DNA of 39,765 nucleotides from contig NW_005434620.1 of the NCBI RefSeq assembly GCF_000315625.1, forward strand, positions 487,349-527,113. The letters are read 5' to 3'. Both the position numbers and the translations under genes were made by a program. This stretch comes from Guillardia theta CCMP2712 (lineage: Eukaryota > Protista > Cryptophyta). Of the stretch, positions 107 through 31,089 are shown one piece after another (positions within the stretch are counted from its first letter, which is position 1; each line of letters opens with the position of its first letter). A model generated the notes under the pieces. It made no database searches. It worked only from the letters and a program-made list of their open reading frames with translations, and had not been told where the DNA came from.

Positions 107-3100
107 ACCTCAGCTGCAGAACTCCAGCACTGATGCATGAGCTCGATTATCTCCGACGGAACTGACTCATCGATCTGTTTCTCCAGCATCAGCCTCTTCC
201 TCCACGTCTCTCCCGCAAGATCCAACTTGCGCTCCTTCCATACCAACACTGCCCCCTGAACCGCAACCATACTGAACCTTCGCATTCTCCTCTCTCATCC
301 CTTCACTATTTCTACCTCCCTGCCCGCCAGCCTCCCAGCCTTCCTCTCTTCTTGCCTCCCTCTCTCTTCTTGTCTCCCTCTCTCTGCCTGTCTCCCTCTC
401 TCTGCCTGTCTACCCCTCTCCCAGCCTTTCCCTGCTTCTCACCATCGGTCGGAGCTCGCCTCGTTTGATGAGTTCCAGCGTCTGCAGGAGCTCGGCGTTG
501 GGGTAGATGGAGGAGGTGCGAGGATGGAAAAGTTCCCACAAGGTGATGGCGTACGCGTATACGTCCGATGCTGTGCTCTCCATTCCTCCATCTAGCAGCT
601 CTGGAGCTGTCCACCAGAAAGGAAGAGCGCCTGCCGAGGGGGGGGAGGAGAATCAGGGAGTGAGAAGTAAGGAGAGGTGAGGTTGCAATCGTTGAGGGCA
701 AGGATGAGTGTAAAGGGAAGACGAAGACAAGGACGAGGACGAGGACGAGGACGAAAGTGGAGGAGGATTGGGACATCGAGGAGGATCGCGATGGAACCAG
801 AGCACGAAAGAAAGGGACGGGGGGACAGTGGACGACGTTCTCACCATCAGCAGAGTAGTCACGGGGAGCAAGAGCCTTCAGTCCAAAGTCAGAGACCTTG
901 GGCGTGAGCTTGAGGTCCAGAAGGACGTTGGCAGCCTTTAGATTCCTGTGAAGCACCGGGGGCTTTGCGAGGTGGACATACTGCATGCCGCACGCGATGC
1001 CGGTAGCGATCTCCATCCTCACATCGAAGGGAAAGTCGAACTGATTGTCCGCCATGTCCCTCACGGAGCCATACTCGAAGTACTGCATGATGATCAGCTC
1101 CCTGCCCCGGTCGAGGCAGGCTCCCATGATCGGGCAGAGGTTGGGGTGCCGCATGCTGATCATGACCCGAACCTCCGCCATGATCCTCGACCGCGCCGAC
1201 AGGCTGATCCCCTGCCCCCTTCCAATCAAGAGCTCGTACCTCCTCGATGCCTCTCCCTGGCTGCTCTTCGACCCACTAAAGTTCCCAGAGAAGAACGCCT
1301 CCTCCTTCGACCCAAGCCTCCTGAACACCTTCGGCTCCACGGTGCCATCCCCAGCGAGCTTGTTCAAGTCACAGTCTGTCACTCGATCGGACGGAGGACG
1401 GAAGGCCTCGCTCGAGCTCCTGCCGAAGGTATTCTGCAGCCAGGAGACCACGATGGACGTCTGATTTCCTCCTTGCCTCCCATGGTCTTCCCACGCCGAG
1501 TAGTCAGCCGAGATGCATCCTTGCGCCTTTAGCTTCATGATCCTCGAGGACGGCATGAGTCGCTTGCAGGCGACGATTCCTCCTCGAAAGATCACCTGAT
1601 GCCATCAATCAGAGCAAGGAGCAAACTGCGGAGAAAAAACGGGGAAAGCAAGCAACAACAACAGCGGAGGAGCTTTACCTTGCTCACAATGCCATGGCAA
1701 CCCATCCCGAGGATGCGAGGGTAGTCGTAAAACGAGATTTCTGCCCAGCTCACACTCCACAGTGATGCGTCCCTTTGCCTGATCCACCGGCGGATAATCC
1801 AGATGAGGAGGAACGTGACAAGTGCAGCAACGCCTCCCCCAATGAAGACGTTCTTCAACTCCCAATCTGGAGGGGGAGGAACGACGTCTTGGCAAGGGCA
1901 AGGCCCCTGTAAGTTGTTTGGGTCGATAGAGGAGGGGGGCCAATCAGGATTATCCAGACAGTGAAGCACATGCTCTGCGCACGTCTGCTTTGCAAAGATT
2001 GCCATGGCATTTGTCATGGTCTGTGTCGTCCCGCTCGTTCCATCCCTCACAACCCTCAGGATCGGCTTTGTGGGGAGGTTGAGAGAGGGATTTAGCTGCT
2101 GCACTCGGCTGTCATTCCAGCATGTTATCTTCCCCAGAAAGATGTCGTTGATGATCGGGCCATTGAGGCGGAGGAAGGCACCGGAACCCAGGCTCAGGTG
2201 CGCAAAGATAATCACTGCGCTCGCAAACATTGGGAGGATCTGAATGTTCTGCTGCCTAGCACACAAGGTGAGCTTGGAATAATCAATTAATGCATCTGTC
2301 CCAGCGAAGTCAATCTGACACTGCAGGATGTCTTGGATGCCAACCCCTGTGGTGCGAGAAGGTCAGGCATCACATCAGAGGACAAGATCCAACAACGATC
2401 ACATACCTGAGCCACCTCCATCATATTGGACGATGACCTCATTCTGATACATCGCATACTCTAAGTTGAGGACATCATACAAACCTTTTGCCAAGGAACT
2501 CCCCGTTCCATACAACAGGATCTTCTGGAGACCCGTTTGATACGTGATGTTTTGAACAGGGATGCCATTGCATTTCATGTATTCCAGCCTTTGTTTTGCC
2601 TGATCTCGCAACTTACTATCAACATCACATGGTCCAACCTTTGTCAAACCTTCTCCTTCAAATCAGTCGGAAGCATTCCAAAATGGTTTTCATGTGCAAC
2701 CTACACCGATCGTCATTGAGACAACGGAATTCGACTAGGGGATGGGATACCGCAGCAACGCGATCCGAGGTGAGTATCCAATGAATATAATCATGGAGAG
2801 CCTTGGCTTTCATGCAAACATCGTTCGATCCAGTCCAATTTGTTGGGACCATGATATACCTAACAGCCGATCACTTTACAAGACGACAACAATGCTTCTG
2901 CCACACGTCATGGTGGAGATTGGCCAGGCATCAGTGGCATCAGGACTGAGGATGTTGGCACAAAGTCCCATGGGGCTGCAGTTTCCTTCAGCATTGGGAT
3001 CGCTCAATGCAAATGCCTTCGCCCTGACAGCCGCCTCAACTGTATCAATGCTCACAGACACCTGTTGCATTCTTGTGAGTGGAGAGTAGGAGAGGAAGAG

Positions 3101-3456
3101 GCTAGAGAGAGTAACAAGAAGGCATGGAATGCAGAGCTCACAGGGTTTCCAGCAGATCCTATCAGCTGGGCGATGATAATGTCCCCGCTCTGCGCTTCTT
3201 GTACAATCCGATTGTCATAGGCTGTATATCCGACGGAATATGGGTCACTGCGGACCAGGTTGATCATATCAAGGCTTGTTTGCATGTAAGTGAGAGATTG
3301 GCAGGTCCCGTTCAAGTTCTGCGTCGCATTGGATGCTCCCACAACGTACATAGTGCCAATCACGAACAGGAAGTAGACGAAATTATGTCTCGTCTCTGTG
3401 AATTGCCGCCAGGGAAGCCCTGGAGGCTTATTCACAGACAATGGACAAGATGCCAT
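107..3456 (-). CDS. Receptor-like (pseudo)kinase: signal peptide, circularly permuted PstS-like phosphate-binding domain, TM helix, TKL kinase domain (multi-exon; 3' end beyond window edge)
   Basis: Spliced reading: MASC...NFVYFLFVIGTMYVVGA (hydrophobic leader). PstS C-half motifs DMINLVRSDPYSVGYTAY, LIGSAGNP, DAWPISTMT, LHDYIHWILT. PstS N-half motifs LYGTGSSLA, VQYDGGGSG|VGIQDILQCQIDFAGTD (60-nt GT-AG intron 2347-2406), LRLNGPIINDIFLGKITCWND, VVRDGTSGTT. TM VFIGGGVAALVTFLLIWII-RRW. Kinase motifs LGMGCHGIV, VACK, MRHPNL, HRNLKAANVLL, VSDFGL, WTAPE, SDVYAYAITLWEL, LMHQCW. Confidence 0.88.
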
Positions 3457-3759
3457 GAACGGGAACCCGCACTAGGGTGGGTGGACGAACATGAGGGAGG
3501 GTTTTTCACAGCACACAGGACAATCGTGAGGCCCAGGTCCTGACCCCATTCATCGTCTGGGATCAGAAGACGAGGGAGCAGAAGGAAGAAGAGGTGAGTA
3601 GAGGTAGGCAGGAAGACGAGGGATGACTGAGAGAACGGAAAGTATGGAGAGGTATGTGATGAGAGGGTAGGATGGCGAGGAAGAAGCGAGGAAGAAGCGA
3701 AGAAGAAGCGAGGAGGAGGCGAGGTCGGCTTTCAGTGAGGAACAAAATGGAGTGTAGGG

Positions 3760-4420
3760 GGAGGCGACAGTGAAGTCAGGGAGGGTAGGGTATTTTAAGT
3801 GTGGATTGACGTGGTGGGGTAATATTCTAAAAAATTGAAATGTTTGGAGAAAAATTGATATTTTGAGATGAAAATATTTGAACATTTAAACAAAATTGCT
3901 CAGGGCCCGGAGAAGTCCGGTGAAGGCGGCGTATCGTGTCGGAAGGTTTGTTCGCTCACTTGAATCGAAAGTCCGAGCCTCTCAGTCACCCGAGTCCTGA
4001 GTCGGACGCGCGCCGGGGCCCGGCCCGGCCGCCCGGCCGACACTTCATAGCGTTGTCGCTCTCAACTGACCCCTCTGGTTTCCAATAGTTTTCTGTGGGG
4101 GTATCCTTCCACACATGTGAATAGCAAATGGCAGTTGGGGTCTGGGGTGGGTCAGACGGCTGGGAGCTGATTCAAATTGGTTGAGACCTGTTTAAGGGGG
4201 TAGGGTACTTCCTGGTAGCAAATAATTGTACCAACAGTACCAATTTTATGGTACATATTCGAGTACTGTTAGGAAAACTTGTACCAAAATAGTTTATGCG
4301 GTACCTCCCCTGTTCAAACTATGATGCTTTGGACCCACCTGTTTCCCAGTGAAAGTCCCTTCTCCGATGGGGTCAAGTTTTGGACCCTACCCTGCCTCCG
4401 ACCAACATAGACCACCCTTG
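3760..4420. repeat. Intergenic spacer module 1 (AT-rich block, GC-palindromic block, GGGGTA/GTACC-rich block)
   Basis: AT-rich 3790-3900; GC words ccggggcccggcccggccgcccggccg at about 4010-4040; repeated ggggta/gtacc/taccc to about 4420; no credible ORF. Confidence 0.55.
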
Positions 4421-6459: not shown

Positions 6460-7210
6460 CCCTCTGCTAAATGTATTTTAAAAGGTACCCATTACAGTAC
6501 CAGACCAAGACCTGTACCCCCCACCCCCCTGTCGCGTCCGTTGGGTTCGAATATTTGAAATACTACCACGCCTACCCATCAGGTTCTGGTACAAATCATT
6601 ACTCCACTATACAAGGGCCTAAGTGATCCTATGCAAAGGCAATAGGAACAACTGTTTACTTATCTAAGCTCTCAATTACCCCCGGTTGCCGTTGAACGGG
6701 CAGCGCTGGAAATGGATTTTCAAACCTTCCAATCCTTCGATTTTTTACTCACACACAATTTTCTACTGGAAAATGCCTGGATCTGGTACAAATCCCAATT
6801 GTCAGCAAGTTCCTTGACCCGACAACGCTATGGCCCTGTGGGCTGCGATCGGACTGGCACGCCGGACGGGGCCGGGGCGGCCGGGCGGCGGCTCAGCGGC
6901 CTGAAGGCTGTCACATTACGCAGTGACGTGAACGAACGGCACACTGAAAATTGAATCATTACATGGTGAACTATGTTACATATTGACTATCAGTATCATG
7001 AGGCTGTCACTGCTGCCCATCGCTGATTGACTCGCCGAGGGTCGCGGACCTGGAATCTTGGCCGCATCTGAGCTTAGTCATCATGTGCTATCCAGCCGTA
7101 GCGCGCTATTCCATCCTGCAGTTGGAAATGTCTCAGTGAGTGCACTGAGTAGGCTTTTACCACTGTCGTGACACTACGATCCTGATCGGATCATGGCTGT
7201 TGCGCCGATG
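6460..7210. repeat. Intergenic spacer module 2 (TACCC/GTACC block followed by GC-palindromic block)
   Basis: ggtaccc, gtaccccccacccc, cctaccc at 6480-6700; gccggacggggccggggcggccgggcggcgg at about 6860-6890; then short palindromic words (gatc, catg, cagtg/cactg). Confidence 0.5.
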
Positions 7211-10637: not shown

Positions 10638-12709
10638 ATGACCAAGACAGGTGAGCACCAAGATGGCTGTTCGTGTTGTGCTGCTCAGCGGTGGCTCATT
10701 CCTTCAATGGCTCACCCGTTAACCCAGATTAAGGCTGAGAAGATCTTAAAAGCTTGCTTTCTACTTCTGGATTCATTTCATGACTGAGATATTCGCTGCT
10801 CTGATATGTAGACCTCCGAGGTAAGTTCCCTGTTCGGCCCACTGAATGTCCCTAACGCACGCGATCCCAAGGCACTCATACACGTTGACGGACTTGGGCC
10901 CAGCTCGATTTCGGATGGATGGTGAGAAGGAGCCTTCTCCGAATGATAAGTGAATGTGCGTGAAGGAAAATTGTATTCAAGGACAGATTTACAGCTCTAC
11001 AACAAACGAGGGCAGGTCAGTGATGAATGCCGCTGCTTCCTCCATGGTTCCTCATTCTGATTGCTGTAATTGGTACAGAGAATAGAGTGCAGCCACTACC
11101 GAGCTGGTCCCAACGAATTCAATGATTATCAACCATCACCTTGTGTGGTTTATCTGCATGGTGTCTCTCTGCTGTCAATCAAAGCTAGGTCGTGATACAT
11201 AGAATTTTCAGGGAATTGTGGCAGCCGTGTTGATGCTGATGAAGTATTGAATCTTCTCTCTGAATAACCACATTTCACTTTTTCTTGCACAGATCGTAGA
11301 AGGACTTCTTGAAGAAGGAGTCTCGGTGTTTTCATTGGATTTCTCTGGGTGAGTTCGGATCACGTTTGAAATGCTCACTTATTGTTGCTTGCTGAAAATC
11401 ATGCAGTTGCGGTCTGAGCGATGGGGATTTGGTCTCTCTTGGATTCTTTGAGCAGGTGACTCCTTCGTTCAGGGGAAAAAAGTCATGTTGAATCACATTT
11501 TTACACAAGGATGACCTGTCTTGTGCGCTTGAGTACTTGGCAAACGATCCAAACACAACATCGGTATGTCTCAGTCCTCTCCTCAGACGTGGTATTATCT
11601 TGACATAAAAACAAAAGGTGGCCATCTGGGGTCGAAGCATGGGAGCAGTTGTTGCTTTACTGGTCGCTGGGAGTGAACAGTTTAAGGGGATTGCATGCTT
11701 GGTGATAAGGCAGATCCTTGAAGCATTTGGCAAGCTCACTCCATTTGCAGATTTTAGACTCTCCGTATTCATCACTTCAACAGCTTCTAGAACAACTGGC
11801 TCATAAGTACATCCCTCAGGTACCCATCTCGAAATAAGATACAGTTGTTGACTCTTGTTGCTCAGGTTCCACTGCTTCCTTACGACAAGGTAGAGTTTAA
11901 ATTCATTTTGCTGTTCCCCGTCACATGGCATATATATGATTGCCGTGGTGTAAACAGGTCGTAGAAGCTGCTCTTCTCTCTCTTCGCCAGGCTGTACGGC
12001 AGGTGTGATGAGTGGGAGAAGATTCTGTTGCATTCGAAACTTACGACTGCTTCGCTTTGCCTCAGAAAGCAAACTACGATCTCTTTGATGTGGAGACAAC
12101 TTCTCCTGCGAGCAGGTCTGCAAGAAACGATAATCCAAACGAGGTTCCCTTATCTCTGTCCCACAAGATGCCGCATGCCGGCTTTGTTTGCCCACGCAAA
12201 AGACGACCAGCTCATCCCAGCAACACATTCGAAGTTGCTGATGGACGCTTATGCTGGGGAAAAAGTAAGATTTATTGGTAATTTATAGGTTTCCAATCTC
12301 GTTTTCAGGAACTTTTGGAGCTTGATGGAGATCATAATAGCGCAAGGTCTTGTCACATTGCACGGCTTCCCAGGAGTCTAAATACCTCTCGTCGCAGGGA
12401 AGGTGAATACCTCAAGAAAGTCTCATCGTATCTGGTCCGAAACCTCTCGTCCTCACCTCCTCTGACCATCGAGGTGGTTTGAATTTGTCCTTCTCCGACC
12501 ATCCGATATGCCAAGTGACATGGAACTCGAAGCAGAAGTCGAGGAAAGAAGTCACCGAAAAGAAGGGCCTCGAGCAGCAACACAATCAAAATCCTGTCGC
12601 TTGGTTTTCAAGGCAAGTTCGCAATCGTACGGCGAAAACCTCAGTGCCAGTTTTAATTGTTCTACTCAGTTTTGTTGGCGGACTCTTCCAAGCAGAAACA
12701 GCTAGATGA
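10638..12709 (+). CDS. Alpha/beta hydrolase (YqkD/ABHD-like serine hydrolase), many short introns
   Basis: Spliced motifs RPPR-HSYTLTDLGPARF, GVSVFSLDFSG-CGLSDGDLVSLGFFEQ-DDLSCALEYL, nucleophile elbow AIWGRSMGA (about 11620-11645), ILDSPYSSL, acid PALFAHAKDDQLIP, catalytic His LDGDHNSAR (about 12320-12345). Start codon tentative. Confidence 0.85.
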
Positions 12710-12719
12710 TGCAAAGACC

Positions 12720-13860
12720 GTTGGCACCGGGGAGTCCGAAAGCCTATGGGCCGTCGACCTTGACCCCCGGGCCCGGCGGCCGGCTAACTTGAAGGCTTAG
12801 TGACTTGTCAGACTACTAGGCTAGTGACGGACTCCGGGAGTAACACGTAATCGGCCATCGACCCGGATTATCGCTCGTCATGACGGTAGCTGCGATGCCA
12901 TGATCCGCCGGATAGCGGCCCGGCCCGGCCTACTAGGCTAGACTACCGGGCGCGCGTACTACGGTACCCGGTACATGGCCCACCGTCACTGTGACAGTGT
13001 CACAGTCTGGCTTCGTCCGGGCGGGGGGCCTCGCAGGCTCAGCCCGGGCCTGGCAACCGTCCGACCCGGTCAGCCCGGTGTGATCACTGTCATCATCAGC
13101 CCGGCCGGACTGACTCCCCGGTCAGACCCCTGGAAATCACTGACTCGGACCCCGCTCAGTCACTGTCGCACGCCGGGCCGCGCCCCCGGCCGGTGCCCGC
13201 CGCCGCCGCCCCGGCCGGCGAACTTCGAACTCGGAACTTTTAGAACTTTGGAACTTTGAGCTGTTTCCAAGTTTCGCTGCCTGAGCGATCCGAAGTTTCG
13301 CTGCATAGCAAATTTTCTGGAACTTTATGCCAGGGGGGTGGGTAGGCCTTGAACAAGTTGTAGGAACGAAGATTGTGGGGGTGGTCTGAAACCAAAGGGG
13401 GTGATGCTCCTTCGACATTTGGGGTAGTACCTGGGAAAATTGGGGGTAGGGTCCACTTCAGTCAGCACCACCTGATGACTGAAACTTGGGGGTGGGAGTG
13501 TTCAGAATTGTTTGCGAGACCCGGGGGTTGGCACTTCTCCATGGGTAGGGTGGTCTCATTTGTCAGAAATGGTGGGGTGGTGCACTGATAAGGCACTTGT
13601 ACAAGGGTCTATTGTTGCGGGGTAGGGATGCATGGGTAGGGTACTGAAAAAGGGGCCACTACAGGGTATTTCGAGTCGGAAGGAGGGGTGCATGAAATAG
13701 TTGGTTGGACAATGGCGAGAGCGGTGGTAGGGTGCTAGAAAAAGTCAGGAGTAGGGGTAGGAGTAGGGGTGGGTAGGGAGTACACTGGGGGTACATCACA
13801 GGGGAGGTGGGTTGGTGGGTCGCAGAGGCGGCATCGCAATGTTGCGCCGGGGCGTAGCGG
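12720..13860 (+). repeat. Intergenic spacer module 4 (GC-palindromic block, GAACTT cluster, GGGGTA block)
   Basis: 12720-13220 is rich in cccggg/ggcc/ccgg/gtcac/gactc; gaact(t) occurs five times at 13220-13256; aagtttcgctgc occurs twice (13269, 13293); ggggtaggg tract 13330-13800. Confidence 0.6.
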
Positions 13861-13899
13861 AGGTGAGATGATGGCGAATAAGAAGACGAAAACGAGGAT

Positions 13900-13912
13900 A
13901 AAGATGATGGTC

Positions 13913-13951
<39 letters not shown>

Positions 13952-14463
13952 GAGATTATGATGGAGATGGAGATGATGGAGATGGATATGATAGAGATGG
14001 AGATGGAGATGATGGTGATGGAGGAGATGATGGAGATGATGATCACGATGATGATGACGGAGATGATGGAGGTGGAGATGGAAATGGAAATGGCGATGAT
14101 GGTGGAGATGATGATGATGGTGGAGACGATGATGGTGGAGATGATGGAGAAGATGATGATGGAGACGATTATGGAGATGATGATGGAGATGGAGATGGAG
14201 ATGGAGATGGAGATGGAGATGGAGATGGAGATGGAGACGATGAAGATGGAGGAGATGATGGAGACGATGATGGTGGAGATGATGGAGATGATGATGGAGA
14301 TGGAGATGATGATGGAGATGATGATGACGATGGAGATGATGATGGAGATGGAGATGGAGATGAAGATGGAGATGATCACGATGAAGGTGGAGATGATCAC
14401 TATGGAGAAAAAAGAGAAGACGATGGAGATGGAGATGGAGATGGAGATGATGATATTATGATG
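13900..14463 (+). repeat. Compound microsatellite (ATG)n/(GAGATG)n
   Basis: About 560 bp of atg, gag atg and acg atg triplet units. Confidence 0.95.
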
Positions 14464-14659: not shown

Positions 14660-17600
14660 ATGTTAGTGAAGGGAGTGGGAATTCCATTTCCCCGACAGAT
14701 AACACTAACTCTGTTAAGATATCTGTGAACTTCCTTGACCAGTGCCCCACAGAAAACCGTCGCTCTCACCAGAGCCAGGGTCGCTAGCAGGAGCTTCCTA
14801 GCGACAGGTGTAGAGAAATGAATGAAGACCTTTTTCATTGTCGAATTTTCAGAACTGACTTGTAGTGTGCCAGCGTCCAAGATCAGACTTGAAAATGCTC
14901 GATCATACTCAAGGAAGACAACGATTCCGGATGTTGCTGGAGCCTCCTTCAACATTTGCTCCCAACAAAATCGCAGGCCTCGGATGGTCTTCTTCAGTCA
15001 GCAGAGACGTTTTGCTTCTACCTTCAAAGTAACACATTTGACATCTTGAACGCTGAAGTGATTGTTTTGGTTGAATTGCTTTGTGCAGGAGGAGTATGAG
15101 AAGCATGTTGCAGAACGTGCAGCACAAGGGATCGTTCCCAAGCCGCTTAGCCCCAAGCAATGCAGTGACCTTGTAAGCCATTAAGTTTTCGCTGCTATTG
15201 ATGATCGGCCTGCATGTGACCTGGATGCATCTTGCAGGTCGAACTTCTCAAGAATCCACCAAAGGGTGAGGAGGAGTATCTCCTGAATCTCCTCAAGACA
15301 CGGGTAATATTTCTGGCTTCAATTTTCATTCTTTTTTAATGCTGATCCAATCTCTCCATAGGTTCCTCCCGGTGTTGATGAAGCTGCTTATGTAAAGGCA
15401 AGCTTCCTTACCTCGATCGTGAAGGGTAACTTGTTACAGAGTATCAATTACTCTGTTTTGACGTGTCGATTCTTAGGATCTGTCTCCTCGCCTTTGATCA
15501 ACAAAGCACAGTAATTGGAACTATGTGCATTGATGCTTTCATCTGATATCATTCTCGTCCTTGTCGAACAGGGCTATCGAAATTCTTGGAACCATGCAGG
15601 GTGGATACAACGTCGAAACCCTGATTTCTGCACTTGATGATGCTCAACTCGCGCCTGTTGCATCGAAGGTTTGAATTTTCCGCTTTCCTCTGCTTGGTAA
15701 CTTTCGACTAGGCTCTCAAGAAAACATTACTCCTCTTTGATGCTTTCTATGACGTGGAAGCTAAGGCAAAGGCAGGCAACAGCTTTGCAAAGGAAATCAT
15801 ACAGTCATGGGCTGACGCCGAATGGTTTCTCTCAAAACCAGAGGTGCCAAAGAAGATCACAACTACCGTTTTCTTTGTCAAGGGAGAGACGAACACAGAC
15901 GATCTCTCGCCAGCTCCCGATGCTTGGTCAAGACCAGACATTCCACTCCATGGATTGGCCATGCTGAAGAATGCAAGGGAGGGAATCATCCCTGACAAGG
16001 ATGGCGAAATTGGTCCTATGAAGCAGATTGAGGAGTTGAAGAAGAAAGGACACCCTCTGGCTTACGTAGGAGATGTTGTTGGTACTGGTTCTTCCAGGAA
16101 GTCTGCTACCAATTCAGTGTTGTGGTTCATGGGGGAGGAAATTCCTTTTGTGCCAAACAAGAAGTCTGGTGGTGTTTGCATCGGAGGAAAGATTGCTCCC
16201 ATTTTCTTTAACACCATGGAGGATGCAGGTGCCTTGCCAATCGAGATGGATGTCACAAAGATGAACATGGGCGATGTGATTGACATTTATCCATACGAGG
16301 GAGTTGTGAAGAACAATGCAACTGGAGAAGTCTTGTCTGAATTCAAGCTCAAGACTGAAGTACTGTTGGATGAGGTTAGAGCAGGCGGAAGAATTCCTCT
16401 CATCATCGGCCGTGGATTGACATCAAAGGCCCGAAAGTCTCTCAACTTGGAGCCATCCAAAGTTTTTCGACTTCCAACTGGTGCCTCAGAGAAGAAGCCG
16501 GCAGGCTATACACTTGCTCAGAAGATCGTTGGCAAAGCTTGTGGCGTCGAGGGTGTTTCGCCAGGCACTTATTGTGAACCCGCGATGACTACTGTTGGCT
16601 CGCAGGATACTACAGGCCCGATGACTCGTGATGAATTGAAGGATTTAGCTTGCCTTGGCTTCAGTGCTGACTTGGTTATGCAATCTTTCTGCCATACTGC
16701 AGCATACCCCAAGCCCGTTGATGTTGTCACACATCACACTTTGCCAGATTTCATCCGTACTCGTGGAGGTGTCTCCCTTCGACCTGGAGATGGAATCATC
16801 CATTCATGGCTCAACAGGATGCTTCTTCCTGATACGGTCGGGACTGGAGGCGATTCTCATACTCGATTCCCAATTGGTATCTCCTTCCCAGCTGGCTCTG
16901 GCCTGGTAGCTTTTGCTGCCGCAACCGGCGTGATGCCCCTTGATATGCCAGAGTCGGTGTTGGTCCGATTCAAGGGCAAGAAGCAGCCAGGAGTTACGAT
17001 CCGTGATCTTGTACATGCCATTCCGTACCAGGCGATCCAGGATGGACTTCTCACAGTCGAGAAGAAAGGAAAGAAGAACATCTTTTCCGGACGCATTCTC
17101 GAGATCGAGGGTTTGCACAACATGACAGTTGAGGAAGCATTCGAAATTTCGGATGCCTCTGCCGAGAGGAGTGCAGCCGGGTGCACAATCCAGGTTGACA
17201 AGGACAAGATCATTGAGTACCTGAACTCGAACATCACGATGCTCAAGTGGATGATTAGCGAGGGATATGGCGATGCCCGTGCGATGGAGCGAAGGATTGC
17301 GTCCATGGAAGAATGGCTCAAGAATCCAGTCTTGCTCAAAGCCGATCCTAAGGCGGAGTATGCTGCCACCATCGAGATCGACCTTGATAAGATTAAGGAG
17401 CCTATTCTCTGCGCTCCTAATGACCCCGACGATGCCAGGCTGTTGTCTCAAGTTCAAGGAGACAAGATCGACGAAGTGTTCATTGGATCATGCATGACCA
17501 ATGTCGGACATTTCCGAGCGGCTGGCAAGCTGCTTCGCGAGTTTACCGGCCAGATCCCAACCAGGCTGTGGATTGCGCCCCCAACAAAGATGGATGCGGG

Positions 17601-17991
17601 TGTGCTGACTGAGGAAGGTTACTACTCCATCTTTGGACGTGTGGGCGCTCGTATCGAGATGCCAGGGTGCTCTCTCTGCATGGGTAACCAAGCTCGAGTC
17701 GGCGACAGCACCACCGTCGTCTCCACCTCAACCAGGAACTTCCCCAACCGTCTTGGCAAGGGAGCGAATGTCTACCTTGCCTCCGCAGAGCTTGCAGCTG
17801 TCGCTTCCATCCTTGGGCGTCTGCCAACTCCAGCTGAGTACTTGGAGTATGCGGCGAAGATCAACTCGACTGCCGCTGACACCTACCGCTACATGAACTT
17901 TGACAAGATGGAGAGCTACGTGAAGAGTGCGGCGAAGGTTGAAATCTCAGCGGAAGCTCGAGAGGCGGCAAAGAAGCATTTCTCGAAGTAG
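14660..17991 (+). CDS. acnB: Aconitate hydratase B (bacterial AcnB type) with probable mitochondrial presequence
   Basis: Exons spell [55 protein letters not shown], then one long exon 15712-17991 with [45 protein letters not shown], Fe-S cysteines FIGSCMTN and [10 protein letters not shown], and [10 protein letters not shown]. Six GT-AG introns between 15029 and 15711. The leader ends [10 protein letters not shown]. The exact start codon (14660-14984) is uncertain. Confidence 0.96.
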
Positions 17992-20349: not shown

Positions 20350-22768
20350 CGATACCACGAGACGATCCCACGTTCACAAGCTTTCCTGCTTGCTGGACAA
20401 AGGAGCATCGAAAATACATCAAAGAGGTCTTCCAGTTCAGTTTCAACTTTGTTTCCGCGCACTCAGCTCCATGTGTTAACCATTTACAAGCAGCCATATC
20501 AACATCACCACATATAACATCACAGGCGGCACAGAGAGGCTGGGTCAAGACACCATGCTGTCCTGCAACAAGCCCTCCAACAGCGTGTCTGTGCCGCGTC
20601 TCGGAATCGACTTCTTGCTCTCGAACGTGTGCATTCGAACCCATCGGTGCGAGATCAATCTCCTTGCCTGCCATGGACAAGTCAGCTCCAGCAAACGCCT
20701 TCGTCCCCTTCTCCTTCTCACCTTGGGCCGTCGCGAGGCCTCTCGTTGCAGGCAGGATAAGATGAAGCTCCTCCCTGCGCATGGGACGTCAGCGATCGGG
20801 CAAGATCCTTGCAAGAGATCACAACCTGTCTCTGAGAGCCCTGGGGGCAGCTCTGGCAGATCCTCCGACTTGGCTATCTTCATCAGCACCGCCATCGTGT
20901 TCAACCCTTCCCATGGCATCTTCCCAGTCATCAGCTCCACCACCGTCATCCCCAACGACCAGATGTCCGCCGACCTTCCCGCATGCTGCGAGAGGAGCAG
21001 TCAGCGAGGGTGAGGAGCCTCCTCACCGGCATGAGAGCCCTCGGGAATGAAGCACTCACCTTGTCCAGAACGATCTCCGGCGCCATCCAGTTAATCGTCC
21101 CAGCTGGGTCCCTGCCCGAGCTCGGCTCCTTGTACCATCCTGTGCTGTCTGTGTGCAGGTCATGGCCGAAGTGAACGTCGAACATCCTGCTGGCTCCGAA
21201 GTCCGCGAGTTTCGCGATCATCTTCAAGGACTCGACTCCCTTCGCCGATGTGATCTCGTTGTCCATTGCAGGGAAGAGCAGGCAGTTCGCACCCTTGATG
21301 TCTCGGTGCAGGATGCCGTTGTTGTGGAGGTACTCCAGCCCCAGCAGGAGCTGGGCTGTGTACTCCCGTGCAACGGTCTCCTCGAGGCCCTTGCTTGCTT
21401 TCGCGAGGTCTGCCAGCGATCCGCCATGTGCATACTCCATGAGGATGAAGAGTGTTGTGTCCGTCCGCTCTGAGCCGAGGAGGGTAACGATGGAAGGATG
21501 CGACAATGCAGACATGATGCTGATCTCCCTCTCCACCTTCCCAGCTCTCGATCCCATCAGCTCCACCTCCTTCACCGCGACGACTTGCCCTTTCCCATCG
21601 TTTCCGTCGACGTCCCAAGCAGAAAACACTGTCCCGAAAGCTCCTTGCCCCAGCAACTTCCCTCGAAACCACCTGAAACGAGTCCCGCAGAACATGTCAT
21701 TGCCGAAACCATGAGGAATCATTGAGGGAAGATTATCATGACATTTCCTGCAATCGCTTGTCTTCCTTTCATACATCGGCTGCTTCATGTCAGGCGCTTT
21801 CCTCGCTTCATCCACTCGGATTAAAACCTTGGCGACCTCGTTGCGAAACCGCACCGACTCGAGCTTCTGCACGATGTCTTGGCATTGAGAAGCAATTTGC
21901 AGGAGGAGCTGTCGACGGCCTTCTTGTCCAGTGCTCGTTGACGAGTAAGAGAGGTCCTCGTCGTCGGAGGATTGTGAGCAGACTGAGGTTGTCCGGTAAA
22001 TGACATCGTCCAGCGCTTGCATCCATAGATCAAGATCATCTGCCCTCTTGCTCGCATCTGATATGACGATTCTTCTCAGAGTTGCAGTCTCCATGTGTGA
22101 GAAGTAAGACGAGGAGACCTTGTTCTTCAACGCTATCAACTCCATGTAGACCATCAACGAGGCCGGGTCAACATCGAGCTGCGTGATGATCTTGGAGTTG
22201 ATGTTCAATCCATCGTCTTGCAGAGACAGCAGGATCATGTCCATAACACACAGGCATGGGATGCCCTGCCAGATGAAGGCCTTCCTGTTCACGAGGTCCG
22301 TGCTGGCGATGATGGCTCCGCTGAGAGCGTACATGCATGTCTCAAAGCAGTCGTCAAAGAACGAAGGCCAGATGCTGTTGAAGCGATCGGCAAAATCAGT
22401 TGAGTTCGAGACCTGCAAGGAGCTTCACCTCAGAAGAGCATCATCCCATCACAAATGTTACCGTGAAGAAGCTGCGAGCAGACGAAGGGAGTTTGTTCTC
22501 CACCACCATATTCTCCCATTTTTTCCTCTGGTTCTCTTCAAAGGATTCCAGCTCTATGATCGAACCCGCTGATATCACGGAACTCGATCTTCGGTAGTCC
22601 TGCCACGAGCATCAAACTTGTGAGCAACTTGTGCAAAAGGCGAAGCACCGGAACCGTTGGCAAGGATTCGCTGTCGTCGTATCGCTTCGGAGAGGAACAT
22701 CCCGTGTTCACTGAAGCACCACAGCCCATCTTGTATCTATCGCGCACTTCGGGACCATCTTGAAGCAC
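20350..22768 (-). CDS. STE11/MAP3K-like Ser/Thr protein kinase with N-terminal extension
   Basis: RWFRGKLLGQGAFGTVF, VAVKEV, REISIMSALSHPSIV, FILMEYAHGGSL, LEYLHNNGILHRDIKGANCL, KLADFGAS, GTINWMAPE, ADIWSLGMTVVELMTGKMPW, FILSCLQREASRRP. Both ends approximate; no clear terminal exon before spacer module 5. Confidence 0.9.
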
Positions 22769-23233: not shown

Positions 23234-24970
23234 GTATATATATATATTAACTTCGTGATTATAACATACTCTTACACTTTTTCTTCGTGATTATACCACA
23301 AAGAATACTACTATTATACTTAGTACCCTTTGCGTATGATAATATTCTCATATCATTACTCTAACAATTTCCTTATAACCTAGTAAAAGTTTAATATTCG
23401 CTATCAAACCCTTACACACTATAAATAGCCCGTTTATGGACTGTAAGTAATACCTATGTTATTTAATAATAAACTATATATAGAATATACACCATACTAA
23501 CAAGTCTTAGTAGTTATTCGTGTGTAGTCTTATAAAATTTCTTCGTGACTCAATTAGACTTATCCCCACACACTAAAACTAACCTCATTACACCTTTTAA
23601 CATCTTCAATTAATATACTTTCATTTCACATTACACCCTTATAATACTATAAAATCCCTTTCAAATCTAAATCTTACCATATTTCCATTATTGTGTTTAA
23701 AAATGATTTAATCTAATAAATAATTACTTATACCTTACTTAATTATGACCGATTCTATGGCACTCTTCTATAGATACCCCCATAATTATAAAAATATTTC
23801 TATCATTGACGATGATATCTCCAAAAATCTTAAACTTCTCTATCAACAAAACTATCAATCTAAATTTGAACACTCTAAAGAACATTCCATCGGTCAATAT
23901 TCCGGACCTAGTTCTTGGACAGAACAACTACAATATTATGATATTAACTCATATGATGATATCAAATCTATTCAATTTGATTCAATACCCTCTAAACCCC
24001 TTCATCCTGAATTAGGCAAAATCAGATTCATTAATAAATACACCTTCGGTATTGATACTGACGAAATTCAACATATACTTCTTAATAATCGTCTCACATT
24101 CCTTAAAATATTTCAATTCCGTATTGAAAATAATAAAGCAGTTGCTACCATTCTTAATGACCTTAAAGTCTTTCTCAAAATTATTAAAACAGTTCTCGGT
24201 GATGAACATGAACTCTCTCGTAAATATCAAAGACTTACCTATGACTTTGATTATATCATCGTCCGTCAAATTGAAGGAGATAACACCCTTAATCAAAAAG
24301 AAAAAGCCAATTGGATCTCTTTCCCTACTATCCTTCAACTTAGAGACTCCCTTGAACATGAATGGCGCACTCTACTACAAAATAAACCTATGCTTAAAGA
24401 TACTAAAGCTGCAGATAAACTCATTTGGACAAAACATTATGCTATGCTCTTACTCAGCTGTTATACTCTAACTCCCCCTGTACGCCGTGAGCTATTCGGA
24501 ATCAGATTTCAACAATTTGAAAATAATGACTTTGTCTATATTCCTCAAGATATTAACAAACCTGTTGAATATGTCCTTTATACTATCAAAAAACTTCATG
24601 AACCTATTCAATATCCTGTAGGGTATGACGAACAATCCAGTTATAAACTATCACAACTTATCCGAGAATCTTATCAACTCTATCCCAGAACATTCCTTTT
24701 CCCTACTGTCACTGATATCAATAAACAAGCACAACCTAATACTATAGCTCTGTACTTTCAAAAACATGTTTGTGATAAAGTATACCTCTCTATTAATATA
24801 ATTCGTTCCAGCTTCATCACCTGGAGAAATCAAAATCCTTATTATACATATAATCAACGTAAAGTTGATGCTAATAAAATGAGAGATGATATTCTTGTCC
24901 ATCTTCAATACTATAACAAAGTACTTGACCCTGAACTAACCAAACTCAAAGAACAACAAGAAACACGTGC
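23234..24970 (+). mobile_element. AT-rich foreign island (probable fragment of an endogenous virophage/Polinton-like virus or other tyrosine-recombinase element)
   Basis: Abrupt switch to AT-rich, G-poor sequence at a (TA)n run (23235-23247); intronless 1.2-kb reading frame; abrupt return to host spacer sequence near 24970. Confidence 0.7.
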
Positions 24971-25127
24971 CGGAGCAACCCCCCTATTGAGTTTTTCCAC
25001 CCCACCCCCTAGCCATCCCACACACCTACCCTATTGTACCCCCACCTACATCATTTTATCTGGCTACCTTGTATCCAGTGGCAGTACCCCTATATTGACC
25101 TTTCAAAGTACCCCTATGTTTGACTGA
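23745..25127 (+). CDS. Tyrosine recombinase/integrase-like protein (last about 50 aa are read-through into spacer DNA)
   Basis: Motifs in YR order and spacing: LLLSCYTLTPPVR (Arg I), YTIKK (Lys), LSQLIRESY...FLFP, SINIIRSSFIT (HxxR-like), ANKMRDD, LQYYNK (nucleophile Tyr). Confidence 0.75.
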   Translation: MTDSMALFYRYPHNYKNISIIDDDISKNLKLLYQQNYQSKFEHSKEHSIGQYSGPSSWTEQLQYYDINSYDDIKSIQFDSIPSKPLHPELGKIRFINKYTFGIDTDEIQHILLNNRLTFLKIFQFRIENNKAVATILNDLKVFLKIIKTVLGDEHELSRKYQRLTYDFDYIIVRQIEGDNTLNQKEKANWISFPTILQLRDSLEHEWRTLLQNKPMLKDTKAADKLIWTKHYAMLLLSCYTLTPPVRRELFGIRFQQFENNDFVYIPQDINKPVEYVLYTIKKLHEPIQYPVGYDEQSSYKLSQLIRESYQLYPRTFLFPTVTDINKQAQPNTIALYFQKHVCDKVYLSINIIRSSFITWRNQNPYYTYNQRKVDANKMRDDILVHLQYYNKVLDPELTKLKEQQETRAGATPLLSFSTPPPSHPTHLPYCTPTYIILSGYLVSSGSTPILTFQSTPMFD

Positions 25128-26120: not shown

Positions 26121-27319
26121 TTAGAATTGCGCCTGTCTGAACTTGACCAACTTGGCAATGCTGCAACAGAAGACGAGAGGGGAGGAGAAGCGAGAGAGAG
26201 GGGGCGGGCGGGCGGGGGGGGGGGAGTGAGTAGAGACAGAGAGAGAGGATGAGGNNNNNNNNNNNNNNNNNNNNNNNNNNNNNNNNNNNNNNNNNNNNNN
26301 NNNNNNNNNNNNNNNNNNNNNNNNNNNNNNNNNNNNNNNNNNNNNNNNNNNNNNGCGGATCAGCAATGGTCTTCACTTTCTAGGGAGTCCAGATCCACCC
26401 ACCTCACCGAATGATCTTTGCTGTCGGCGACCAGCAGAAACTTCCCATCCAGGCTTATGGCAACGCCAGTGGGTTCGTAGAACTGTGCATTGGTACCAAT
26501 ACCATCATTCAAACCCGAGACCCCATTCCCAACAAGATCATGACACGTATCTGGAATCTGCCAGTCCACATGCTTGATCGAGTGGTGGGACTTACCGCCA
26601 ATATAGGCATGGCTCCCAACTAGGTCCAACCCAGCGGGAATCATCGTTGGAGACCCCGCCGGGACAGCCACGATGGAACTCACAGCTCCCGTCTGGAGGT
26701 TGATCTTTCGCATGTGATCCGTGTCGACAACAACAAGAGCGAGGGAGGGAGGGAGAGAGAGAGAGGAAAGGAGAAAAAGAGAAAGGAGATGAGGAGAGAT
26801 AGAGGGGAGGGGATGAGGAAAGGAGTAGAGAGAGGTGGGAGGGGAGAGGAGGGGATGAGGAGGGGAGGGGTCCACGGGAAAGACAGGCAAGCTCAGCATC
26901 AGATGGGACAGGAGACGGAAGAAGGAAGTAGCAGAGGAGGGGTCCACGGGAAAGACAGGCAAGCTCAGCATCAGATGGGACAGGAGACGGAAGAAGGAAG
27001 TAGCAGAGGAGAGAGGGGCAGGCAGGAAGAAAAATGGATAGACTGCGTACAATTTGTTTCGAAGTTGTGTTGAGCAGATGTTTTAAATCATTGTCTGTGT
27101 ATTGATAGTTGCTCACGCTTTACTTCTCTGCGCAGAACAGCAGATATCATGTCGATTCTTCAATTTCTTTGCTTCTTCCTTTTCGTTTTCTCCCTTCCCA
27201 CACTTGCATTGCGGCCCTCCAGGCTTCCTGCTCCGAAAGGCTCTGCGGCACCCAAGCACTACGAGGACATCCATCCTCTGAGGTTTGTTCATATCTTCGG
27301 CAAACATACGCACTGGCAC
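26121..27319 (-). CDS. NHL-repeat (beta-propeller) protein, partial, interrupted by an N gap
   Basis: LVGNGVSGLNDGIGTNAQFYEPTGVAISLDGKFLLVADSKDHSVRWVDL is a typical NHL repeat; also DTDHMRKINLQTGAVSSI. Exon structure incomplete. Confidence 0.75.
26865..27011. repeat. Exact 72-bp tandem duplication
   Basis: ggggtccacgggaaagacaggcaagctcagcatcagatgggacaggagacggaagaaggaagtagcagagga occurs twice (tccacggg at 26871 and 26943). Confidence 0.95.
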
Positions 27320-27456
27320 TGATCTGCCGAGACGTTCGTCGACAAGACTTGTGACTATTGTTGATAATCTTTCGTGTGAAGTTGTGATGCGTTGGTCTAG
27401 TAAACTCTTATAACTTGACCTTCATATATGCACATAACATCTATCTTACAAATCAC

Positions 27457-30400
27457 TTATGCAATCGGGCTGTTTTGACTCTCCGTCACTTGCACGTCTT
27501 GCTCTAATTTGAGTTCTCCGATCTTCAAGCTCAGCTCCGTCTCGATCAAGTCAATCAACGGCGCTTCTCTGTTGCTCCTCCTCTTCCTCCTGTTGCTCTC
27601 CATCGCAACCTGCCGCAGTTCTGTCCTCATTTCGGCCATGCTCTCCTTGATCATGCCCCTGATCCCGCTCATCTCCTCATGAATCTTCTCCTCTACGCGC
27701 TTCATCAACTGAGCCTGCTGCTTGCAAGCCTTGGCAGCGACCTCGTGAGGCTCCATCCAGTATGCCTCGAACACGCCGCTGCCTCTCCGGTCTGAGCTGT
27801 GTGTCGTCGCTCCTAAGCTCTGATCGATCCGCTCCATATTGATCATCATTTCCTTTATCGCCGCGAGGAGGACCTCGATCTCCACCGACGACTCAAGGTG
27901 CATGATGGCGTCTGTCACCTTCCTCATGGTGAAGGTGCGCAGCTGCCCGACGATGATGGAGTGGAACTGCGGGAACCCGAGCTCCCAGTCGTCGTTGCAG
28001 AGCTTCCTCCCCTTGGTCAGCCTGTCAAAGTCGTCCTCTGTGAACTTGAGGTGGCTCGAGGGGTCGATCTTGTGCAGCCCGTCCGCCAGCTCCGAGTAGG
28101 AGATCGAGCCCGTCCTATCCACGTCAAGTAGGTCGAAGAGCTTCGCGATCTGATATTGCAAGTCGTCCGTGCTGTCGTACTGCAGGCGCTCAAGGAGAAT
28201 GTCGAGCGGGAAGGCGTCGTCCGCTCGCATCTGCATCGCTGCGGCCTTTGCACACTCCTCCCGATCCTGACGCGTCGCCCCGAAGAAGTTCTCGAGGAGG
28301 ACAGCGACCATGACCTGTGGGTTCGAGTGAGCCTGGCGAGGAAGGCGAGAGGAGGAGGGAGGAGGACGAGGATGGAGGACGAGGGAGGAGGGGGAGGGGG
28401 AAGGAGAAACCTGCAAAGAAGCAGAGGCAGCACAGGAAGGGAGAGGGCATGAGGTGACAAGAGGAAATGATAACGAGGGCGAGAGAGCGAGCAGGTAGCA
28501 GGAGATAGGTAGATCAAGGAAGGCAGGAGGGAGGAAAAGGCAGGAGGGAGGAAAACCTGGAGTAGGACGAGGACAACGATGCAAACGTAGCTGCACACGT
28601 AGGTGACGACGATAGGGTCCACTTGATCAGTCACTGGATCGAAGGGAGGCAATTTGTCGTCGGGCCAGCTGGAAGAAGAGGTCAGATTCTGAAGAGGAGG
28701 AGGACGAGGAGGGGGAATCGAGGCAAAGGGGGCAGGGATCGGCATAAGGAGCTTCACTCACTATCCATATGCGATGACGGCAAACATGGTGTAGTAGGCC
28801 TGAAAGAAAGTCCCTGTTGGCAGGGTGAGGAGTCGCCGTTTGCACTAACAACGGAGGGAGAGGAGGAGGAGGAGGAGGAGGAGGAGGAGGAGGAGGAGGC
28901 GGGAGGGGAGGAGAGGCAGAGGGGTTGGAGGTGGAGGACACGGCGGTGGAAGGTGGTGGAAGGCGCCGTCTCGTCTAGCGCTCACCAAACTCCTTCGGCG
29001 CCTTCTCCCCGAAGACCTCGACGCCGAGGGTGCAGTAGATGGCGATGACGATGATGCCGATGATGAAGGCCTGGGTGACGGGGATGATGCTGCTGACGAT
29101 GGCATGGATGATGCTCCTTAGCTGCCGCAGCCTCCCGAAGATGCGGATCACGCGGAAAGTTCGCAGGATCCTCAGGTGCTTCACCCCCGGAAGTTCCGAC
29201 AGGCCGAGCTGGATCAGTGAGACGGTTATGATGGTGAGGTCGAACCAGCACCTGTAACGAGAACATCTCAGTGAGGCGTTGGGGAGGGCGAGGGAAGGGA
29301 GAGAGCGGGGAGACAAATTTATGGAGGAGGGCAGGAGAGGGAGGAGGAGGCAGAGAGCGAGAAGGGAGAAGCGAAGAACGGGATCGAGGCTATATGGGAA
29401 GGGATTAAACCAAGCATCATGCACGAAGCGCCAGAAGAACCTTCCGAATATGTTGATTGCAAGCTCTGATGCAATTTGTCAGCACTTGAAGTTGCGACGA
29501 GGCGCAGCAGCGGGAGGGGATCCGGCCTCACCTATTGTGAAGATGATGGTGAACGCCAAGTCTACGAGCTGGAACTGGTTGTCAAGGTCAGACCCAGCCT
29601 GTGGTCTGATCTGCGTCTGTGCGATGATCAAGAAGAAGTTGGCAATGATGAGTGCCGCCATCACGCCCTGAAAGTAGATCGAATCCAACATGAGGCATGC
29701 CCTGTGCTGCCAGATGTCGATCCAATGTTTCTTGCTGTACTCCGACCTCTTTTCCTTAGCCGTGGATGCAATGATGTCCACCCAGTCGTGGACGGAGGCA
29801 TTGTTGGGTAGGAAGAAGAAGAAAGCTCTCCCCGAGTTGTATCCATCCGGTATCGTCTCGATCTCCATGACCTCTCCATTGTCGCGCTGCAAGTAGCGGG
29901 TCGCAGCGACTCTGGAGTATCCAGGGAGAATGACCTCCTCTACCTCTTCTGCCTCCTTGAGACACTCGAGCCCTTCGTGATTTGAGTTATGACGCGAGGA
30001 ACTCACACCCGCGTTCACTGACTTGATCTTCAAGCCGGTTGCGAAGGGGCTCCATCGCCTGTCCTGATTCTTGTGCTTCAGGAAAGGGTTCTGAAGAACG
30101 CGGTTGACTGTGACGATCTCTTCCGTCGGGATGCTATCCACGATCTCGACCTGTTCGTTTGCTAAAAGATAGTTGCCGTGCTCCTTCAAGACCTTTGTCC
30201 ATCGCTTCATGTCTTGATGGCTCTCGCAATTGAAGTAAACGATCGGTCGATTGTACGCATCGTTGATCTTGATCGCAAATGGAAACCCTTCCACCGCATC
30301 GTCTTCATCAGAGAGCCGACAGCCCAGCACGTTGAGCCTGAAGAAAGGCTTTTTTAGTCGTCGAAAGTCATCCTCAGTCTCATAGCACTCAAAATTCCCT

Positions 30401-30774
30401 GAACGCAGCACAGAGTAGCAGTTCTGCCACTTGTCTGCGCTCGGCTGGACATTTACAGCCATGTTTCCGTATGCATGGGGGAACCAAGATTTCGAGAGGG
30501 CGATGTAGAGCCTGTCTTGCGTCAAGATCAACCTTCTCCGCACCCAGTCTCCATGACAGTCGAGTTTGTCGGCGGTGTCGTCACGAATTCGCGACTCCTG
30601 GGGCACTGCGCTGGCCATCATTTCATCTTCACAGAAGAACTTGAAGCTCGAGAACGATCCTGATTTCATCAAGTTCCTTGCCCTTCTGATCCCATCCTTG
30701 TTGCCGTTTGCAGCTGCTGGCTTTGATCCAGAGCCTGTCCTGTTCAAGTGAACTGCTGCACCTGCAGCAAACAT
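27457..30774 (-). CDS. Single-domain (6TM) voltage-gated cation channel with N-terminal PH domains and C-terminal EF-hand/coiled coil
   Basis: S1 YFQGVMAALIIANFFLIIAQT; S2 VDLAFTIIFTI|ELAINIF; S3 WFDLTIITVSLI; S4 KHLRILRTFRVIRIFGRLRQLR; S5 AFIIGIIVIAIYCTLGVEVF; P-loop FGTFFQAYYTMFAVIAYGYWPD; S6 SYVCIVVLVLLQ|VMVAVLLENF; EF-hand DVDRTGSISYSEL; PH motifs KWQNCYSVLR...DMKRWTKVL. First in-frame ATG at 30774. Confidence 0.9.
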
Positions 30775-30776
30775 CG

Positions 30777-30826
30777 TTGCAATCTCTGTTTGCAATCTCT
30801 GTTTGCAATCTCTGTTTGCAATCTCT
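30777..30826. repeat. 13-bp tandem repeat (ttgcaatctctgt), about 3.8 copies, just 5' of the channel ATG
   Basis: ttgcaatctctgt ttgcaatctctgt ttgcaatctctgt ttgcaatctct. Confidence 0.9.
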
Positions 30827-31089
30827 CGCTCAAGCGAGGAGCTCCAGTCAATCACGAGTGAGACCTCTCTTCATGTCAGCAAAGCTGTGAATGTCGGCGA
30901 TCTACGAGCTGATTGCACCCGCAACACCTCAAATGTTACGAGAAGTTCAAGGTAGAATCAAGTCCAGCCATAGAGTTTGGTAATCACTGCCATGAACAGA
31001 ACGAAGTGGACTGGAGTGAGTGATGGCCAATGGCAGCGTGAGGGAGGAGGAGGAGGAGGAGGAGGAGGAGCAGTTGGGGAGGGGGAGTG

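Follow-up and report, generated by a model that had tools for sequence, protein, structure and literature searches.

A candidate phosphate receptor of Guillardia theta with a permuted PstS-like ectodomain and a probable ATP-binding pseudokinase

What might be sensed, and what controlled, by a receptor in which the catalytic aspartate of the kinase domain is replaced by asparagine? This question is raised by a gene at the left end of a 39,765-nucleotide stretch of the Guillardia theta CCMP2712 genome (hereafter, the window; contig NW_005434620.1, positions 487,349 to 527,113). On the minus strand, an intron-rich eukaryotic receptor gene runs from about position 3456 to beyond position 1, the left edge of the window. 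Inside the window, the spliced reading frame has 832 open codons across eight introns, and the protein consists, in order, of a hydrophobic signal, an ectodomain with six sequons, a membrane helix and a kinase. The features, in window positions, are the following.

3334..3456, minus strand: start codon at 3456-3454, followed by a hydrophobic N-terminal signal peptide or anchor (residues 23-41); spliced contigs are continuous over 3139-3560
2561..3312, minus strand: C-terminal half of the PstS-like domain, placed first (residues 49-223; profile positions 191-346); our own HMM, 83 bits, E 9e-26
3062-3141, 2860-2906, 2701-2750 and 2600-2649, minus strand: introns within the C-terminal PstS half, with GT-AG joints
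1931..2524, minus strand: N-terminal half of the PstS-like domain, placed second (residues 236-413; profile positions 2-179), with an intron at 2347-2406; our own HMM, 127 bits
1790..1846, minus strand: predicted single transmembrane helix (residues 442-460), the strongest hydropathy peak
1563..1732, minus strand: start of the kinase N-lobe, with the Gly loop GMGCHG (1714-1691), an intron (1596-1678) and the beta3 VACK motif (1574-1563; Lys508)
1203..1562, minus strand: low-complexity beta3-alphaC insert of about 120 residues
845..1202, minus strand: alphaC (Glu638, 1175-1173), catalytic loop HRNLKAAN (Asn715) and DFG (890-882)
443..630, minus strand: exon with the P+1 loop LPFWWTAPE (APE at 607-599) and alphaF, joined across the intron 631-844; the consensus of the X5 and X6 loose ends matches this exon
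109..174, minus strand: last kinase exon in the window, with a probable acceptor at 174 or, as an in-frame alternative, 255; placed by alignment to the homologs P0002 and P0017, without read coverage

The gene model is backed by contigs from sequencing runs. Run X5 gave one spliced contig of 4276 nt (depth 113) with six GT-AG joints, and the loose ends of the X5 and X6 contigs connect position 845 to the exon that begins at 630. Both runs are presumed to be RNA, and the GT-AG joints indicate that the contigs represent spliced molecules. Across 790-3560, the contigs of X5, X6 and the DNA run X2 contain no alternative letter; X2 differs from the window by three one-base gaps, all of them intronic, and is possibly the source of the window assembly and so not independent of it. 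An in-frame TAG lies at 3474-3472, 16 bases upstream of the receptor ATG, and because both spliced contigs cover this codon continuously, the protein starts at the ATG at 3456-3454. A signal role of residues 23-41 is suggested by their hydropathy and by the N-glycosylation sequons that directly follow. The leader (3457-3560, minus strand) contains three upstream ATGs (3553, 3549 and 3492) that open short frames of 15, 25 and 6 codons; two of these ATGs are in frame with the receptor gene, yet are halted by the TAG. Further upstream, a GC-rich inverted pair (79%; 4011-4034 and 6875-6898) surrounds a 2.8-kb gene-poor stretch that is possibly a small mobile element.

The initial annotation, made from the window sequence, described the kinase as a likely pseudokinase with HRN in place of HRD, in which the Gly loop, the beta3 Lys (VACK), DFG and APE are retained. 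The catalytic loop indeed reads HRNLKAAN (minus strand, 950-927), with Asn715 encoded by AAT at 944-942, and the contigs of X5 (depth 113), X6 (at this codon, depth 3.2 only) and X2 contain no substitution there. In the raw RNA run X19, 5 reads matched the gene in 764 million letters (~ 6% of the run), none of which covered the Asn codon. The Gly loop, the beta3 Lys (VACK), DFG and APE are present as described, and so is the alphaC Glu. The P+1 loop is altered as well, reading LPFWWTAPE in place of GTxxWxAPE, with the Gly-Thr gone; the alignment register here is ambiguous, and the Thr is missing in every register. In kinases, this Thr has a supporting role for the catalytic Asp. The residues of the ATP pocket (Gly loop, Lys508, Glu638, Lys717, Asn720 and Asp733) are all kept. 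Pseudokinases are defined at the sequence level by the loss of the beta3 Lys, the HRD Asp or the DFG Asp, and Asn715 places this kinase among them; the retained Gly loop, beta3 Lys, catalytic-loop Asn and DFG Asp would assign it to the ATP-binding class. The pseudokinase claim is thus upheld, and strengthened by the presence of the Asn in spliced contigs, the accompanying loss of the P+1 Gly-Thr and the intact ATP pocket. Most likely, the domain is an ATP-binding pseudokinase that arose in this gene after duplication.

By itself, the HRN motif is ordinary. According to the available part of PMC4718504, HER3 and JAK JH2 have Asn at the position of the catalytic Asp, bind ATP with one cation and possibly keep weak activity. 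The beta3 Lys, the catalytic-loop Asn and the DFG Asp are kept in these proteins as in the window kinase; unlike HER3, however, the latter also keeps the alphaC Glu, and it belongs to the TKL group rather than to the EGFR or JAK family.

The expectation that the Asn would be conserved in relatives was not borne out. The closest named relatives are P0002 from Hanusia phi (31% identity over 829 columns) and P0017, the G. theta protein GUITHDRAFT_48170 (57% over 220 residues). P0017, the closest paralog, has the catalytic loop HKDLKAAN and the P+1 loop GTIFWNAPE; in the record of P0002 the frame is shifted across the catalytic loop, and its catalytic codon could encode D, G, A or V, never N. Among the 165 homologs fetched, we chose the 44 with a single kinase followed by a cyclase, and 43 of these keep the catalytic Asp, so that, together with the sister P0017, they lead us to reject family-wide conservation of Asn. 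The exception, P0137, a kinase-cyclase with an ANF ectodomain, has independently lost the Asp to Asn (HCN) and, like the window kinase, lacks the P+1 Thr; its Gly loop is degraded. No true ortholog came to light. Neither an ortholog with Asn nor the product of the receptor gene itself was found in three homolog searches, nor was either among the best 150 of 17178 matches in a 50% representative search seeded with P0002; a metagenome scan returned only 4 weak loci (26-29%), none a useful relative.

We built a kinase tree (FastTree, midpoint root) from 89 of 204 domains, namely 42 of the 44 cyclase-linked ones, the window kinase, P0017 and 45 others, with no animal sequence among them. The window kinase is sister to P0017 (support 1.0) and is nested in a clade of 41 members, 39 of them cyclase-linked (support 0.84); its branch is longer than that of P0017 (0.63 vs 0.31). 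In the 42 cyclase-linked relatives, 48 kinase columns are at least 90% conserved. The window kinase retains 33 of them, with two more lying past the edge of the window, and P0017 retains 37; the only departures private to the window kinase with respect to P0017 are D715N, G750L and T751P. From these alignments, the Asn appears to be a lineage-specific and gene-specific loss within a family that normally keeps Asp. The long branch also fits relaxed selection and, given that no Asn ortholog was found, selection for the Asn is only a possibility.

A long Ser/Gly-rich insert between VACK and alphaC had also been pointed out. The insert is real, lying within one exon covered by the spliced contig, which rules out an unspliced intron, but it is only moderately rich in Ser and Gly (32 of 120 residues) and is not special. 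From the beta3 Lys to the HPN motif of alphaC-beta4 there are 137 residues in the window kinase, 100 in P0002 and about 25 in ordinary kinases, and in the 33 kinase-cyclase relatives of the 44 in which this span was measurable it ranges from 55 to 332 (median 131). We therefore regard the insert as a family trait.

What makes the gene notable is that a probably kinase-dead paralog carries a permuted ligand domain. Pfam detects PF12849 in the ectodomain from one exon (35.9 bits vs the cut-off of 27), and the N-terminal PstS half matches PstS structures (E 2e-12). The exon 2408-2599 by itself gave no PDB match of use. Both halves are present: with an HMM for which five homologs supplied nine in-order PstS repeats, the ectodomain covers the profile from 191 to 346 and then from 2 to 179, once each, with a link of 12 residues, so that the C-half precedes the N-half, departing from the canonical N-to-C order. 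At the sequence level, the PstS domain is completely circularly permuted, which makes the ectodomain a permutant that would work like PstS rather than a standard member of that family. The same permuted order is found in P0002 and P0052 (the latter N-terminally incomplete). PstS-like segments were detected in 14 homologs, 2 of them permuted and 12 with in-order repeats; 5 of these 12 built the profile and 7 were tested with it, two of which match piecewise, yet in order. The whole window ectodomain aligns across the tandem-repeat junctions of P0024, which is consistent with a tandem PstS array having been trimmed to leave the C-half of one repeat and the N-half of the next. In tblastn searches of the window with seven homologs, the sequence upstream of the gene yielded no remnant of PstS. 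Among the titles and abstract openings listed in searches of the open literature, none mentions a permuted PstS receptor or this cryptophyte family.

The phosphate ligands of PstS given in the available part of PMC6549937, T10, F11, S38, D56, R135, S139, G140 and T141, correspond to S245, L246, S274, D292, R375, S379, G380 and T381 in the window protein, with two conservative changes. It is therefore likely that the ectodomain binds phosphate. The sequence, the predicted fold and the ligand positions are common to this ectodomain and bacterial PstS (PF12849; PDB 1ixh family, 4h1x). Unlike bacterial PstS, the window domain has its halves swapped, is attached to the membrane through lobe 2, where the new C-end lies, carries sequons and Cys residues, and has Gly at the position of Asp137. 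In P0002, whose ectodomain is likewise permuted, the GSG loop bearing the Ser38 equivalent is missing, in a record that is error-prone. For the fold, we used the AlphaFold model of P0002, a homolog rather than the window protein; it was computed from 13 sequences and has a mean pLDDT of 61, with values of mostly 75-94 in the ectodomain core. It aligns with PstS 4h1x with Z 16.0 and rmsd 3.9 over 214 of 257 residues. This match, over model range 22-318, is larger than a single half would allow, so that the two halves are expected to come together as one domain. A Foldseek search with this model had only kinases among its listed matches, and a structure-atlas search with the P0002 ectodomain returned generic PBP clusters at 0.90-0.92.

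The initial annotation further proposed that the pseudokinase possibly regulates a cyclase or other effector encoded beyond the left edge. Kinase-cyclase receptor fusions are already known in protists, as reported in the available parts of PMC4053784 and PMC5804921, and the window gene resembles the algal and protist receptor kinase-cyclases (P0052, P0025 and P0054, and the kinase-flanked cyclases of Acanthamoeba described in the same part of PMC4053784) in its signal, ectodomain, single membrane helix, TKL kinase, long beta3-alphaC insert and position in their clade. Several of these relatives have PstS-like ectodomains, and P0052 combines the permuted one with a kinase and a cyclase. The window gene differs in lacking the Asp that 43 of 44 keep and in the order of the PstS halves, which is canonical in 12 of the 14 PstS-bearing homologs, and no cyclase was matched within the window by the seven homologs. 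However, the X5 contig extends 1395-1476 nt past position 109, and in 10 measurable relatives the cyclase reaches to 227-266 residues past the corresponding point. Because of the family placement and this transcript length, a class III cyclase past the left edge is plausible, with the odds somewhat in its favor; the X5 remainder could instead consist of a long 3' UTR or belong to a neighbor gene. A further point against a cyclase is that P0002, the closest full-length homolog, has none in its record, although that record contains a frame error.

The likeness to the kinase-homology domains of animal receptor guanylyl cyclases (NPR-A/B and GC-C) stands as a functional analogy, not as common retention of a state, given that the algal and protist family normally keeps Asp. 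These receptors are single-pass proteins with an ATP-binding pseudokinase before the cyclase, the arrangement proposed here for the window gene, although the role of ATP binding in them is unsettled, according to the same part of PMC4718504. The window ectodomain is PstS-like rather than of the ANF-receptor type. The loss of the Asp in the window gene and in the animal receptor cyclases would be a convergent state, because in the former it is gene-specific within an Asp-keeping family.

Taken together, our preferred reading, with a probability of roughly 0.5 for the whole chain, is a phosphate receptor with a permuted PstS domain that signals through an ATP-binding pseudokinase to a cyclase encoded beyond the edge. 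We infer the following course: the ectodomain would have arisen by tandem-repeat trimming; catalysis would have been lost once the gene had been duplicated from a kinase-active HKD paralog; binding of phosphate, the presumed ligand, would close the permuted clamshell, whose lobe 2 connects it to the membrane helix; this closure would drive a rearrangement of the dimer; and the ATP-bound pseudokinase would pass the signal to the C-terminal cyclase by a change of shape, not by phosphorylation.

The same features allow an unlikely alternative, in which the protein has no cyclase of its own and is a kinase-dead co-receptor that binds phosphate and either pairs with the HKD paralog, as HER3 does with HER2, or serves as a scaffold. 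The sister P0017 keeps HKD and GT, its Hanusia counterpart has the permuted ectodomain without the Ser38-equivalent GSG loop where the window protein keeps all ligand positions, and the P0002 record ends, without a cyclase, about 50 residues beyond the kinase. Against this, the G. theta paralog is a partial model that does not include its ectodomain, the P0002 record has frame errors, and the 1.4 kb of further transcript would be unexplained without a C-terminal domain. A more elaborate version, which we regard as a long shot, is that external phosphate is perceived in cryptophytes by two permuted-PstS receptors, the window protein as the kinase-dead phosphate binder and the kinase-keeping paralog with a degraded binding loop, whose heterodimer would drive both phosphorylation and cyclic-nucleotide output.

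It is doubtful that the kinase remains active in an atypical, Asn form with low phosphotransfer, perhaps on Tyr. Every other catalytic motif is kept, and the LPxxWTAPE segment resembles a tyrosine-kinase P+1 loop, but the catalytic base is gone, the P+1 alignment permits more than one register, and Lys717 is of the Ser/Thr type. Weak activity with Asn is described for HER3 and JAK2 JH2 in the part of PMC4718504 cited above.

Still less probable is an expressed duplicate that drifts without a selected signaling role. The longer branch, the failure to find an Asn ortholog, the few X19 reads and the upstream ATGs of the leader are what such decay might produce; the frame, however, remains open over eight introns, the transcript is deep in X5, identity to the paralog is 57%, and the losses are confined to the catalytic pair, with the phosphate site intact. 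A plain assembly error at the Asn codon is largely refuted by the X5, X6 and X2 contigs, and an error or single-strain variant is very improbable: although X2 may be the assembly source, X6 is shallow at the codon and the runs may all come from one strain, three runs from three studies have no other letter, and the P+1 Gly-Thr is lost independently.

External phosphate sensing by eukaryotic algae is poorly defined, and this gene offers a concrete, expressed candidate receptor. As a natural circular permutation by tandem-repeat trimming, the ectodomain would be a clean case with in-order relatives available for comparison, and the shift of the membrane attachment into lobe 2 would alter the pull of clamshell closure on the membrane helix. 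The gene-specific catalytic loss within an Asp-keeping family appears to be an independent replicate of the step taken by the animal receptor cyclases.

Several other features were recorded in the window. A long intron-free frame at 15712-17991 (plus strand) encodes a bacterial-type aconitase B (PF06434, PF00330, PF11791), and a second kinase exon at 20946-22424 (minus strand) is unrelated to the receptor and has an intact HRD loop. Exons at 26360-30870 (minus strand) have PH, weak EF-hand and NHL matches, and possibly belong to an ion-channel-like gene and its neighbor. Two frames have no Pfam match, one of 316 codons at 11332-12282 (minus strand) and one of 467 codons at 23724-25127 (plus strand); the latter lies in an AT-rich island (GC 0.33), and its motif order is suggestive of a tyrosine recombinase from a Polinton-like or virophage element. 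Positions 13831-14450 are occupied by a degenerate GAT/GGA microsatellite array.
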